From a virus (taxonomy: Duplodnaviria; Heunggongvirae; Uroviricota; Caudoviricetes), in the IMG/VR virus record IMGVR_UViG_2703718792_000011, positions 1 to 19,384 of that record: a stretch of 19,384 nt of DNA. One strand, written 5' to 3'. The notes beneath the pieces are model-generated. The model did no database searches, was not told the origin of the DNA, and was given only the letters and a program-made list of their open reading frames with translations. Below, piece by piece: positions 3,667 to 7,814 of this stretch. Position 1 is the stretch's first letter; each line of letters opens with the position of its first letter. The position numbers were made by a program, and so were the translations under genes.

Positions 3667-4032
3667 TTATTGCGCTAATTCTTTTTCGGCAGCAGCTTTT
3701 GCATACTCACATGCAAAATTCAGAATTTCGCTGCCGAGTGTTTTCGTTTCGTGATTACTGGAAATATGTAATACCTGTGTTGCATGCAATAAATGATAAA
3801 CATTTACCGCAAATGAATCAGGCTCCAGACAAATGCCTTCATAATCATCTTGTTGTGAGGTTGTTTCTGTCATTGCTCCTGAAGTGCATGCGAGCCTGTT
3901 TTTGACAATTCTCTTTCCTCTAATCACTATATCGGCAACATCTATTGCCTTCACAACCTCCGGGAGAAGTTCCTGGTTTGTATAATCAAAGTTATCAACA
4001 TGGAGAACAGTTATGTTTTCGAACTTTTTCAT
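3667..4032 (-). CDS. Hypothetical early-left protein (121 aa), net acidic
   Basis: ORF with GAGGAA 3 nt upstream of the ATG at 4032. No recognisable domain. Confidence 0.65.
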   Translation of the reverse strand: MKKFENITVLHVDNFDYTNQELLPEVVKAIDVADIVIRGKRIVKNRLACTSGAMTETTSQQDDYEGICLEPDSFAVNVYHLLHATQVLHISSNHETKTLGSEILNFACEYAKAAAEKELAQ

Positions 4033-4160
4033 GGCTTCCTCAGCTGACTTATATGTTCTGCTATATAGCGAGTCTCAGAAGTGTTTTCATATTGAGACTG
4101 TTTCCGCAATGATTGATAAAAATGTTCGCATGTACCTTGAGGGGCGAAGCGGCGATTATG

Positions 4161-4667
4161 TCACCATTGGTATTGGTTCTTCCGTAGAAGAGCTTCGCGA
4201 GATAAGGGGCAAACTTGTTGAGATGCGTCATGGTGTTGCTGTTCCTCACTTTTTGGTTGCTCCGGAGGAGTAACCTCACCAGTTAACAGCCACATCGGAT
4301 CGCAGCCAAGAATATTTGCCAGTGGGATAAGCATACTGATAGTTGGTTCATACTCTCCGCTCTCCCACTGGATGATAATTTCTTCATCGAGATCGAGCAG
4401 CTTGGCGAGTTCGGCGGTTGTTAAGCCGCAGGCTTCGCGTTGGGTGCGAATCCGATTCTGGGAATTAATAGCTAAATTTTGTTTGCATAAACGCGACGCT
4501 GTGAGGCTATATTTTTGAGTTACAGCCAGGATGGAGCTGGCAAGTTCAATTAACTCAGGGTTATTGCTGCTATACAGTAGTGCACCAGCCCCGACTAAGA
4601 GCTGAATATTCTCAAGAGCATCGTGCTGATTTGTTGGTAACCCCATATACGATGACATTTTTCTCAT
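4161..4667 (-). CDS. Helix-turn-helix (XRE/Cro-C1 type) domain protein with an N-terminal extension of about 60 aa and a C-terminal tail; first gene leftward of cI
   Basis: 168-aa ORF. The central segment IRTQREACGLTTAELAKLLDLDEEIIIQWESGEYEPTISMLIPLANILGCDPMWLL matches the XRE HTH pattern. GAGGA precedes the start region. It has its own promoter (4708..4736) and is separated from cI by an intrinsic terminator. Confidence 0.7.
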   Translation of the reverse strand: MRKMSSYMGLPTNQHDALENIQLLVGAGALLYSSNNPELIELASSILAVTQKYSLTASRLCKQNLAINSQNRIRTQREACGLTTAELAKLLDLDEEIIIQWESGEYEPTISMLIPLANILGCDPMWLLTGEVTPPEQPKSEEQQHHDASQQVCPLSREALLRKNQYQW

Positions 4668-4800: not shown

Positions 4801-5493
4801 TTATGCAAAACGGTGTAGTGTCATAGGCCAACTGACAATTACTTTTCCGTCAATGTGAAGTTGTTCAAAGTCTTCCGGTTCGATAGCCCAATCCTTGTAA
4901 GCTGGGTTGTCAGATATCACCGTTAGAGTATCTTTGATTTTTTGAAGTCTTTTGATGTGCGATGTTCCAGAGTATGTAAAGGCGTATATACCATCACCAT
5001 TAAATGTGCGAACTGATACATCTACAAATACCAAGTCTTCAGGGTCTATTGTGCCTTTCATACTGTCGCCGTGGGCGTTTATTGCTTTGATTGCTGATGC
5101 TGGTCTGCCGCCAAAAACTCTTGATGCGTATCCTGGTTCTATCGCTATAGATCTGACAATGTCAGGAAAATCAGAGTTATAACTACCAGGTCCGCAACTA
5201 TATCTGATGTCTAAAACATCCACGACATACGAATCAGTAACCCAATCCTCAGAAATGTTACGTATTTGGTGTGAGTCTGCAGAGGTCACGATTTCCATTG
5301 GGCCAACACCCGATGCGAGCCATTCCGGGTTAACGCCCAAAACTTTTGCTATTTCGACTGTTTTTCTGGAACCGTTGGCTTTGTTAAGTAGTTGATTGAC
5401 ACTGGACTGAGCCATACCCACTTCTTTGGCCAGCCTACCTTGCGTAAATTTTGCGTTGCGCATAGCTAAATCAAGTCGTTCTGAAAATGTCAT
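4801..5493 (-). CDS. cI: cI-type prophage repressor (N-terminal HTH, C-terminal LexA-like S24 peptidase autocleavage domain)
   Basis: 230-aa ORF. N-terminus has an HTH (FTQGRLAKEVGMAQSSVNQLL). C-terminus has the Ser/Lys dyad context (GDSM ... HIKRL) typical of S24 repressors. GGAGG precedes the ATG. It is divergent from the cro-like gene. Confidence 0.9.
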   Translation of the reverse strand: MTFSERLDLAMRNAKFTQGRLAKEVGMAQSSVNQLLNKANGSRKTVEIAKVLGVNPEWLASGVGPMEIVTSADSHQIRNISEDWVTDSYVVDVLDIRYSCGPGSYNSDFPDIVRSIAIEPGYASRVFGGRPASAIKAINAHGDSMKGTIDPEDLVFVDVSVRTFNGDGIYAFTYSGTSHIKRLQKIKDTLTVISDNPAYKDWAIEPEDFEQLHIDGKVIVSWPMTLHRFA

Positions 5494-5527
5494 TGCGATT
5501 TTCCTCCCCTCTCTATCTTGGCTAGTC

Positions 5528-5543
5528 TATCGGCTTTCCGATA
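5528..5543. promoter_or_regulatory. 16-bp perfect palindrome TATCGGCTTTCCGATA in the cI/cro intergenic region; candidate OR operator
   Basis: Read directly from the sequence. A partially similar half-site, TATCGCTTTTCC, lies at 5566..5577 inside the putative PR spacer. Confidence 0.5.
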
Positions 5544-5561
5544 AATGTTCTAGGTTTAACG

Positions 5562-5590
5562 TTGAATATCGCTTTTCCTGTTGTTATTAT
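5562..5590 (+). promoter_or_regulatory. Candidate PR promoter for the cro-like gene (TTGAAT, 17 nt, TATTAT)
   Basis: -35 at 5562..5567 and -10 at 5585..5590, about 22 nt upstream of the cro ATG. Confidence 0.5.
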
Positions 5591-5612
5591 GCGTTCAATA
5601 GGAGATGCGATT

Positions 5613-5858
5613 ATGAAACATAAAGCCATAGAGAAAGCTATTGAGATTCTTGGAAGTCAGCAAGCCTTAGCCAAGCGATGCGGAAAGGCCCAGTCAACAG
5701 TCTGCGATTGGTTGAACTGCAAGAACAAGATTTCACCAGAATTTGTGCCGTTATTGGTTGCAGCTGTCGACGGAAAGATCCAGGCGTATGAATTTCGTCC
5801 AGACCTACCAGAGCTTTTTCCACATCCAAGCTTAGCGCACACAGAGGATGAGAAGTGA
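5613..5858 (+). CDS. cro: Cro-like HTH regulator (YdaS/Cro family), 81 aa
   Basis: Start placed at ATG 5613 (GGAGA with 7-nt spacer); the track start at 5562 lacks an RBS. The motif ILGSQQALAKRCGKAQSTVCDWLN matches the YdaS-type Cro HTH pattern as I recall it. Divergent from cI. Confidence 0.8.
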   Translation: MKHKAIEKAIEILGSQQALAKRCGKAQSTVCDWLNCKNKISPEFVPLLVAAVDGKIQAYEFRPDLPELFPHPSLAHTEDEK

Positions 5859-5928
5859 TGGTGGTGATATGAGCGAAAAAATAACTATTAAATACGATGG
5901 GGCAACCATTTCGATTACCCCAATCACA

Positions 5929-6222
5929 TTAGCGTTCGCTGAGAAGTTGTTGGTAAGCCTTAAAGGATGCGAACTGCATTCTACCTTCGGCATTGATTCC
6001 AATGCCTTCGCTTGTACACCAGGCGATGAACTCGGCTGTATCCGCTTCAACTTTAATAACTCGTTGCCCGCTTCTTTCGACACGCTTAATCAATTTTTCA
6101 GCGTCGTGTTTCCACTCGGTGTAACTGTCGGAGAGCACATCAGCATCAGTAAAAATATTTTTGAGCTCATGATACTGAATCGCATCGCGAAACCAGAATA
6201 AACCAACGGCCTGAACTTTCAT
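5929..6222 (-). CDS. Hypothetical protein (97 aa) encoded antisense within the rightward early operon
   Basis: AAGGAGG lies 6 nt upstream of the ATG at 6222. It is convergent with cro and divergent from rha. No recognisable domain. The overlapping + strand ORF 5848..6201 has no RBS. Confidence 0.7.
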   Translation of the reverse strand: MKVQAVGLFWFRDAIQYHELKNIFTDADVLSDSYTEWKHDAEKLIKRVERSGQRVIKVEADTAEFIAWCTSEGIGINAEGRMQFASFKAYQQLLSER

Positions 6223-6335
6223 GTCGAACCTCCTTTGGTTCTTTTGTTTATAGGGATCAACAGGATAACTGAAGGAAGGTTCGGCACCAATAAGTACGAA
6301 TGTGCGGAATCTTAAAAGAATTTATCCGTAAGGAG

Positions 6336-7049
6336 ATGGCAGTGAACACCGCAATTTTTAACGGCAAAGCATCCATGACCAGCCTTGAAATCGCAGAGTT
6401 GGTGGGCAGCCAACACAAAGATGTTAAGCGCAGCATTGAAAGGCTCATGGATAAGGGGATTATTCGAAGTGCGCCAATGGCGAATTTCGAAATAATCAAC
6501 AACTTAGGATTAAAACGAAATGTAGGTGCTTACATCTTCGAAGGCGAACAAGGTAAGCGCGACAGCATCATTGTCGTCGCACAGCTTTGTCCCGAATTCA
6601 CAGCCCGCCTGGTAGATCGCTGGCGTGAACTGGAAGAACAGATCCGTAAGCCAATGAGCGAAATCGAAATGGTTGCCGCGATGGCTCTTGAAGCTGTTCG
6701 TCAGCAGAAACGGATCATTCAGGTGGAAGAAAAAGTCAGCCACGTTGCCGAAACAGTTGAGCAAATCAAAAAGGGCACCATTCGTGAGGGCTATGCCGGA
6801 TATCGCCAACTGAAAGCGAAAACCGGTTTGTCAGATGATAAATGCCGCAATCTGGTGAACGCTTATCAAATTCCTACAGACACCCACGAGTTCATGACGC
6901 CGGACGGATTGTTATCACGTCGCGCAATTGTTGCTGTGGAACCGTTTATGGCTGCTTTTTATCGGGTTATGGAGGAAGCAGAACCGCGAGGGACTCGCTG
7001 GTATCACCCGAAAATGGGGTTATTTCAGGTTATTGGCTGGCAGCGGTGA
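6336..7049 (+). CDS. rha: Phage regulatory protein Rha family (antirepressor-like)
   Basis: The N-terminal motif MTSLEIAELVGSQHKDVKRSIERL is characteristic of the Rha family as I recall it. AAGGAG abuts the ATG at 6336, so an alternative GTG start at 6342 (6-nt spacer) is possible. Confidence 0.8.
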   Translation: MAVNTAIFNGKASMTSLEIAELVGSQHKDVKRSIERLMDKGIIRSAPMANFEIINNLGLKRNVGAYIFEGEQGKRDSIIVVAQLCPEFTARLVDRWRELEEQIRKPMSEIEMVAAMALEAVRQQKRIIQVEEKVSHVAETVEQIKKGTIREGYAGYRQLKAKTGLSDDKCRNLVNAYQIPTDTHEFMTPDGLLSRRAIVAVEPFMAAFYRVMEEAEPRGTRWYHPKMGLFQVIGWQR

Positions 7050-7073: not shown

Positions 7074-7265
7074 TCGCTCAACGTTGATACAGGCAACTGC
7101 ATAAAGCAGGCCCAAGAATCCAAGAACGTTAACAAAAATACCAGTAAGCATATGAATGTTTCAAGCCTAAATATTGATTCTGCAATTTCGGGACGGTACA
7201 CTGTCCAAGCACCTTATAAAGCGGGTGCCGGGATTGGCGTCCTGGAAATGTTATCGGCGATATAT

Positions 7266-7285
7266 GACGCGCCAGCGTCTTTTTT
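7266..7285 (+). terminator. Candidate rightward intrinsic terminator or attenuator upstream of the cII-position gene
   Basis: GACGC-GCCA-GCGTC hairpin (7266..7279) followed by TTTTTT (7280..7285). The stem is only 5 bp, so it is weak. Confidence 0.35.
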
Positions 7286-7451
7286 ATCGTCTGCGTCTGC
7301 GCACACCCAAATTATGGTGGGCTGGACGGGGGCACCGAAAGGTGCGCCGGTTTCCGATAACGCCGGTTACGCCAACCCCGTTCAGTTCACCACCAGCGAA
7401 ATTGGCGTTTCCGGTGGTGAAGGTAATTCACTGTTATCGGAGGCTGCCATC

Positions 7452-7814
7452 ATGGCTACAGTCCCAACTTCCCCATACCTGAAAATCGAAGTCGTCAACG
7501 GCAAGGCCGTTATTTTCTCCCTGCATGTTGCCTGCCATTTCAAGCGCATGCACCAGAACATCGTCGACAAAATCGAGTATCTGAACTGCTCGCGCGAATT
7601 TTTTACCCGCAATTTCATACCGGGTACTTATCACATCTATGGTGACTCCCTGCGTGGTTATTACATCACCCTTGATGGCCTGATGATGCTTCAGCTTGGG
7701 TTAAGTCTACGCACAATGCGGTACTACGAGAGCTGCATTGAAGCATTCCATGAGGCAGGGAACAGCCTGAATCTTACCGCTTTCCGCCGTAATCAGTGGG
7801 AGGCGCGTCCATGA
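7452..7814 (+). CDS. Hypothetical early-right protein (120 aa) in the cII position; possibly a CII/YdaT-like regulator
   Basis: Start placed at ATG 7452 (GGAGG with 8-nt spacer); the track's upstream extension to 7152 has no RBS and contains a terminator-like hairpin. The YdaT-like label comes from position after a YdaS-type cro only, not from a recognised motif. Confidence 0.6.
   Translation: MATVPTSPYLKIEVVNGKAVIFSLHVACHFKRMHQNIVDKIEYLNCSREFFTRNFIPGTYHIYGDSLRGYYITLDGLMMLQLGLSLRTMRYYESCIEAFHEAGNSLNLTAFRRNQWEARP

Follow-up and report, generated by a model that had tools for sequence, protein, structure and literature searches.

Morons of lambdoid phages, in the definition of Hendrix and Juhala, are exemplified by bor and lom of phage lambda and by gp15 of HK97. 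Genes such as rex and sieB are classically found beside the immunity region and are silent during lytic growth, and in lambda the place that corresponds to the slot described below is taken by nutR/tR1. The locus considered here lies in a 19,384-nt stretch of viral DNA (IMG/VR record IMGVR_UViG_2703718792_000011, referred to as the window), which is the left part of a lambdoid Escherichia coli prophage; the 1 kb tested is 100% identical to a prophage found next to yecN/cmoA in strain 377323_2f. Between cro and rha, the window carries a gene for a 97-aa protein, oriented against the rightward early operon (Table 1). Literature searches for reverse genes downstream of cro and for WP_000867913 retrieved nothing relevant.

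An optional slot between cro and rha

The neighbours of the gene were assigned by family matches, and its orientation, convergent with cro and divergent from rha, agrees with the original prediction. To judge from its sequence, the PR-like promoter located between cI and cro is the promoter that drives cro and the rightward early operon.

The gene resides on an insert. In the prophage of E. coli strain 'numer 3', which encodes an identical CI protein (WP_000144248.1) and has the same cro and rha, the slot is empty and the stop codon of cro overlaps the start codon of rha (ATGA); by this arrangement, translation of rha is coupled to that of cro in the empty-slot phage. In the window, the insert brings rha a new Shine-Dalgarno (SD) sequence and a GTG start. 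The G+C content of the insert (0.43) differs modestly from that of cro (0.463), rha (0.488) and the window as a whole (0.486). Other prophages of the same backbone contain a gene of the BssS family (PF13991) on the same strand in place of the 97-aa gene, and homology to the window stops exactly at the cro stop codon and restarts exactly at the cargo ATG. On these comparisons, 5852..6342 is an optional, replaceable accessory cassette in prophages of this type. The earlier view of the gene as a moron was therefore largely right: an empty slot beside an identical CI, and cargo swaps behind the same leader, are what an optional, replaceable reverse cassette crossed by PR transcription presents.

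In a Burkholderia gladioli prophage (L062), a second reverse ORF of 99 aa (5435..5734) is located between the homologue and cro, indicating that the slot can hold two co-oriented cargo genes. Downstream of rha in the window, Rfam matches above the gathering score were obtained for isrK (7209..7285, + strand, 63.7 bits) and for C4 antisense RNA (7310..7397, + strand, 82.8 bits), both inside the 5' part of an 'ash family' ORF (7152..7814) with Phage_ASH and Phage_pRha domains. This region looks like an RNA-controlled antirepressor module of the P1 immI or Gifsy IsrK kind.

Table 1. Features in and around the reverse cassette (coordinates of the window)
Feature	Position	Strand	Basis
cI, LexA-type repressor with S24 peptidase domain	4801..5493	-	family matches
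PR-like promoter (TTGAAT, 17 nt, TATTAT; TG before -10)	5562..5590	+	consensus scan; between cI and cro
cro, 81 aa, YdaS/Cro-type HTH	5613..5858	+	Pfam YdaS_toxin (7.7e-15), phrog_35; RefSeq transcriptional regulator
Shadow ORF, 117 codons, not a gene	5848..6201	+	codon-position counts; no family match
Insert, ~490 bp	5852..6342		~22 bp instead in empty-slot locus L065, alignment A8
3' hairpin of the gene mRNA (core stem 5898..5922, U-rich tail to ~5870)	5891..5930	-	terminator scan, folding
Gene, 97 aa, phrog_4753, WP_000867913.1	5929..6222	-	profile match, RefSeq, codon counts, model
Conserved 75-nt leader; 65-nt hairpin in rightward (PR) transcript	6220..6295	+	covariance model R1, variants, folding
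Shine-Dalgarno AAGGAGG, 6 nt before ATG	6229..6235	-	sequence; common to all alternative cargo ORFs
Candidate promoter of the gene: -35 TTGGTG (6290..6285), 17-nt spacer, -10 TATCCT (6267..6262)	6262..6290	-	conserved flank
rha, start ATG 6336 (RefSeq) or GTG 6342	..7049	+	Phage_pRha; SD AAGGAG 6330..6335 from insert

The reverse ORF is the gene

The ORF, its ATG start, the strong SD sequence and the 6-nt spacer (TTCGAC) were all found in the sequence as predicted. Positions 1-97 of the phrog_4753 profile correspond to residues 1-97 of the protein (E 1.5e-49). In a comparison of five distinct homologous DNAs, 31, 14 and 75 variable columns fell on codon positions 1, 2 and 3 of 5929..6222 (- strand), respectively, a pattern indicating that the minus-strand ORF is under protein-level selection. 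Among 5426 complete E. coli genomes, 75 have the gene annotated by RefSeq, and in every case it is chromosomal. By profile match and codon pattern, 5929..6222 is a true gene and not a chance ORF.

The plus-strand ORF 5848..6201 might instead be regarded as the real gene, co-transcribed with cro, with the minus-strand ORF as an artefact; this is almost certainly wrong. It is true that, from the cro stop onwards, the plus-strand frame stays open for 117 codons, that its counterpart bears a gene annotation in phage EKP1 and was picked up by a gene finder in a Pectobacterium prophage (L015), and that stops in this shadow frame are rare across all homologues. However, its codons are exact reverse complements of those of the 97-aa gene. 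Because codon boundaries are in common, a plus-strand protein would vary most at its first positions, and the counts given above favour the minus frame. Moreover, the minus-strand ORF matches its PHROG family from end to end, whereas family profile searches, PHROG included, returned no match for the 117-codon ORF; every alternative cargo gene described below likewise lies on the minus strand and uses the same SD sequence and ATG; and similarity of the plus-strand ORF outside the minus-strand ORF is due to the conserved 3' hairpin. The depletion of stops is mild. Stops of the shadow frame are the TTA, CTA and TCA codons of the real gene, and three were counted in about 50 leucine and serine codons, compared with about seven that we would expect, by our own estimate, for codon use typical of E. 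coli. The notion that selection keeps the shadow frame open was considered and rejected, as a depletion of this size is unconvincing.

The shadow frame is open in all homologues; its stops are confined to the stretch opposite codons 5-25 of the real gene. Gene calls on the wrong strand recur, namely at 4064..4435 (- strand) of L004 (phage EKP1) and at 3911..4354 (- strand) of L015 (the Pectobacterium prophage), and are flagged here as a recurrent annotation error. In two IMG/VR viral contigs (L035 and L046; gene at 2501), the gene is shortened to 35-36 codons, suggesting that it has decayed in some prophages. For E. coli A34 (NZ_CP028741; L060, 2501..3103), RefSeq lists a 200-aa protein whose C-terminal half is the 97-aa gene. 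This apparent fusion was dismissed as an over-extended gene call, since the internal SD sequence and ATG are intact; the N-terminal half consists of read-through of the leader and of the antisense strand of an adjoining small gene.

A conserved leader with a hairpin selected in the rightward transcript

The leader contains an imperfect inverted repeat (6222..6286) with arms at 6222..6236 and 6272..6286. The 5' arm of the hairpin formed in the rightward transcript is the complement of the SD sequence and ATG of the cargo gene. Scanning with covariance model R1 detected a single copy in the window (74 bits) and one copy beside every gamma-proteobacterial homologue of the gene; the empty-slot phage has none.

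Cargo genes were surveyed by a pattern scan of viral contigs, followed by application of R1. The leader was also found in front of unrelated cargo, comprising BssS-family genes, a familyless 155-aa ORF, and ECs1072-family proteins (NF033230, phrog_5286), so that with the 97-aa gene it is common to at least four unrelated cargo genes. Leader-like sequence is present in 523 of 5426 E. coli genomes. In E. coli O157:H7 WS4202 (L189, 2501..3030), it heads an ECs1072-family gene that is reverse-oriented in the PR operon. The O157:H7 ECs1072 gene is located between ydaT, which follows cro, and a replication gene that starts about 5 nt past the leader element; a slot after ydaT implies that the slot is not tied to cro itself.

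Among 19 distinct leader variants, 92.9% of the cells were paired. Wobble pairs were strongly biased: 46 G.U pairs were counted when the variants were read as rightward RNA, as compared to four when they were read as cargo RNA, and many one-sided changes (UG/UA, CG/UG, GC/GU) preserve pairing only in the rightward RNA. The minimum free energy of the leader in the window is -30.4 kcal/mol in PR sense versus -20.4 kcal/mol in cargo sense. The strand-specific wobble pairs thus mark the leader hairpin as a structure that is selected in the rightward transcript, which in turn argues that PR transcription crosses the gene antisense.

As no U tract follows the leader hairpin, it is not an intrinsic terminator. 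Rfam contained no match for the leader, and the R1 scan of the window revealed no second copy downstream of PL that could be an analogue of nutL or putL. An operator common to the cI-cro region and the leader was considered and discarded, the only match being 11 nt long and at chance level.

Homologues in beta-proteobacterial phages have their own perfect repeats of 12-13 bp around the SD sequence, with sequences unlike those of the enterobacterial copies. The two beta-proteobacterial repeats show compensating differences between them and have the loop motif TTTCCAC(A/G)AC in common. The immunity region and leader of phage EKP1 (OM284015; L004, 3500..5500) are close to those of enterobacterial prophages, including the same TTGGTGCCGAACC leader and a DUF4222 gene. 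EKP1 was submitted under an Elizabethkingia host, and that assignment may merit re-examination.

Transcription of the gene and read-through from PR

The candidate promoter of the gene overlaps the hairpin. The unpaired flank TTGGTG, which would provide the -35 hexamer, is kept in 19 of 19 leader variants (as TTGGAG in two copies), and an A/T-rich hexamer (GATACT, GATATT, TATTCT or TATCCT) is found at the -10 position, 16-18 nt downstream of the flank and inside the loop. With 3-4 and 4 of 6 matches in its two hexamers, the promoter candidate is weak and stays below the threshold of the consensus scan, which reported no minus-strand promoter above threshold. The predicted transcription start is inside the hairpin loop.

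At the other end of the gene, folding of the 3' hairpin yielded -17.9 kcal/mol in gene sense versus -7.5 kcal/mol in plus sense in the window; across six homologues, the window included, the values were -16 to -22 kcal/mol versus -7.5 to -17 kcal/mol in PR sense. The hairpin is conserved, as GGGGCRATC..GATTGCCCC, alongside the gene and across backbones. The U tract that follows it is interrupted in the window and poor in some homologues. Since the hairpin is far more stable in gene sense, it can end or protect the mRNA of the gene without stopping PR transcripts, and it is likely to be a terminator or stabiliser that works in one direction only. The statement that no convincing terminator separates cro from the gene holds for the plus strand, where the hairpin has the low stability given above and lacks a U tract.

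Antisense read-through of the gene from PR, as originally proposed, is borne out by the coupling of rha to cro in the empty-slot relative and by the wobble pairs in PR sense. It is also in line with the other backbones, in which a mere 5-20 nt separate the leader from the start of the next rightward gene, leaving no room for a promoter. The proposal that 6223..6335 would contain a promoter for rha gained no support: the consensus scan indicated no sigma-70-like site for rha in this region, and what rha receives from the insert is only the new SD sequence and start codon. For the sister cargo ECs1072, a regulated, growth-phase-dependent microarray signal was reported in uninduced O157 Sakai (PMC2241611); together with the weak promoter candidate, this lends indirect support to expression of the 97-aa gene in the lysogen.

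The plus strand of the antisense stretch contains 25% C versus 20% G and no credible translated ORF; in the RNA antisense to the gene from 5990 to 6145 (+ strand), which is probably untranslated, C exceeds G by 22 to 15-16 per 78 nt. The excess of C over G and the presumed lack of translation of 5990..6145 resemble the features of a Rho loading region, at the place of lambda tR1. Attenuation of PR transcription by the antisense stretch through Rho would be speculation.

Protein family, fold and distant relatives

Pfam, NCBIfam and PADLOC contained no match for the 97-aa protein. At a threshold of E <= 1e-3, an exhaustive profile search recovered 2,708 cluster representatives, of which 935 reached E <= 1e-10; the family, which has no Pfam entry, is therefore large and comprises at least 2,708 clusters. 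Most members are stand-alone proteins of 95-105 aa, with a few tandem repeats, and all are named 'hypothetical' in the source databases. None of 142 members contained a Pfam domain, and no domain was fused to the longer members examined. W10, D26, W37, G52, C69 and R81 are near-invariant.

The AlphaFold model is confident (pLDDT 90.5, pTM 0.79) and describes a soluble alpha/beta protein without a membrane segment, with the order b1-a1-a2-b2-a3-a4; no enzyme or transmembrane family signal was found in the protein. Foldseek comparison of the model with the PDB gave no significant match. The only resemblance was to SO3848 of Shewanella oneidensis (PDB 2ox6), putatively to its C-terminal domain, at 12-15% identity and with no relation at sequence level. 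SO3848 is a structural relative of Aca2 and YdiL. Proteins of the Aca2/YdiL/SO3848 type have an N-terminal HTH, whereas the 97-aa protein has no HTH match and no HTH fusion was seen in the family members examined. A sequence relation to solved structures was sought with profiles of 28 and 142 sequences and rejected, as only chance-level matches emerged, among them the GGDEF match given below, and the 168-aa HTH protein next to cI was discarded as a related SO3848-like partner (hhalign probability 0.1%). The 97-aa protein is cytoplasmic and selectively constrained. From the modelled fold alone, we infer a small soluble domain of a binding or dimerisation type. With low confidence, the protein is proposed to bind a partner protein, as its fold is like the dimerisation-type C-terminal domain of the Aca2/YdiL-like SO3848 without the DNA-binding domain; with similarly low confidence, we do not count it among enzymes, membrane exclusion proteins or core components of the switch.

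Homologues with 25-34% identity occupy the place directly after cro, in convergent orientation to it, in phage EKP1, in one prophage each of Burkholderia gladioli and Alcaligenes, and in two metagenomic phages. These beta- and gamma-proteobacterial phages (EKP1, L019, L062, L063 and L068) have different repressors. In Klebsiella prophages, a homologue lies beside cI and is convergent with cI. The position after cro is kept beyond what would be expected for random cargo, which could mean a link with the switch; on the other hand, the empty slot and the cargo swaps speak against the gene being essential to the switch.

Members of the family also occur outside phages, in Methylobacterium and Methylorubrum (L061, 5001..5306; L066, 4001..4276), where the preceding gene encodes either a GGDEF diguanylate cyclase or a DUF6894 protein, the latter with a response regulator beside it. 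A weak local match (E 0.008) connects the family profile with the helix-strand at the C terminus of a GGDEF domain (3ign). The GGDEF context, the 3ign match and the BssS-family biofilm regulator among the E. coli cargo together offer a faint lead to signalling or biofilm control.

Alternative explanations

A component of the lysis-lysogeny switch would act through its product on Cro, CI or Rha, or through a leftward transcript that runs antisense through cro and enters cI in sense direction, like that of lambda P_RE. The convergent position after cro in distant phages with different repressors would suit such a role, as would the Klebsiella homologue next to and convergent with cI, the location of cI downstream of the gene on the same strand, and the imperfect U tract after the 3' hairpin. 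However, a prophage with identical CI and the same cro and rha has no insert, unrelated cargo is found behind the same leader, and the BssS-family gene that replaces the 97-aa gene has a canonical terminator (GCGC stem and TTTT) that would block a transcript of the P_RE type. The window also lacks a gene of the cII or CP76 family, TTGC-N6-TTGC is missing at the candidate -35, and the O157:H7 slot follows ydaT and not cro. We consider a switch function rather improbable. The likelihood of a function in cis, with the protein being secondary, appears slighter still. In that case the convergent promoter and about 480 nt of untranslated antisense RNA with C over G would constitute a tR1-like attenuator of PR, and the hairpin in PR sense would be part of it. 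The selection of the hairpin in the PR transcript, the base composition and untranslated state of the antisense stretch (C 25% versus G 20% on the plus strand) and, from general knowledge, the nutR/tR1-like place of the slot point in this direction. They are countered by the clear purifying selection on the protein and the large size of its family, which extends beyond phages, by the missing U tract after the leader hairpin and the missing second leader copy downstream of PL, and by the fact that the empty-slot phage manages without the cassette.

An identity as toxin, abortive-infection or superinfection-exclusion factor, as originally proposed, is suggested by the position of the gene, which adjoins the immunity region and would be silent in lytic growth; besides, no other function has been assigned. 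Neither the 97-aa protein nor any of four alternative cargo proteins matched PADLOC-DB 2.0, and the model contains no membrane segment. A partner gene, as in the layout of type II toxin-antitoxin systems, is absent, as a single gene lies between cro and rha and a second co-oriented gene was seen only in L062. Moreover, what is found among the sister cargo is a BssS-family regulator and not defence genes. Such a factor is unlikely, but it deserves some weight.

Proposed mechanism and significance

The reading that we favour, and deem probable, is that 5852..6342 is a reverse accessory cassette, i.e. a moron, in the PR operon, which would be expressed in the lysogen and silenced on induction. 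In the lysogen, CI would shut off PR, and the gene would be transcribed from the weak, constitutive sigma-70 promoter in the leader. Its mRNA would start in the hairpin loop and carry only the arm with the SD sequence, so that the latter would be free; both arms would be present only in the rightward transcript. PR transcripts read antisense through the gene to reach rha and the replication genes, and on induction, convergent PR transcription together with complementary RNA would silence the gene. The product might be a small, soluble binder of a partner protein that alters host physiology or phage susceptibility in the lysogen. Expression in the lysogen and silencing on induction are inferred, as is any role in defence.

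If this is correct, the locus would represent a clean natural system for studying how a prophage carries a gene that is active in the lysogen and inactive during lytic growth; one immunity type exists in three states, namely with the 97-aa gene, with a bssS-family gene in its place, or with nothing in the slot. About 10% of complete E. coli genomes, O157:H7 among them, contain leader-like sequence, which makes the cargo proteins frequent candidates for lysogenic conversion in pathogens. More boldly, leader and reverse cargo might form an undescribed module of temperate phages of beta- and gamma-proteobacteria, that is, a portable platform in the PR operon whose hairpin, formed only in the rightward transcript, would link the cargo to the state of the switch and control how far read-through proceeds to the replication genes, with the 97-aa family as the ancestral, lysogeny-tied cargo; we regard this as a doubtful proposition.

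Comparison with known systems

Like lambda nutR/tR1 and HK022 putR, the leader hairpin gives the PR transcript a structured RNA element between cro and the next early genes. Unlike these elements, it has no Rfam match, no copy on the PL side and no recognised boxA/boxB-like pattern, and it travels with reverse cargo and is absent from the empty-slot phage. With lambda rexAB, sieB of P22 and lambda, and stk of 933W, the gene shares its location beside the cI/cro switch and the predicted activity when the lytic promoters are off; it differs from them in that it has no relation in sequence or fold and is not co-transcribed with cI.

The closest parallel is with the morons. As in these, an extra gene is present or absent among close relatives at the same junction, has its own SD sequence, a 3' hairpin and a G+C content lower than that of its neighbours, has a weak candidate for a promoter of its own, and is oriented in a way that would permit expression from a repressed prophage. 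In contrast to morons, the cassette is embedded antisense in the PR early operon, so that every rightward early transcript must cross it; its leader is common with at least three unrelated cargo genes, and the family keeps its position in very distant phages. The parts that most merit attention are the leader hairpin common to several cargos and the large uncharacterised family; the gene is an ordinary phage accessory gene in an unusually well-defined setting.
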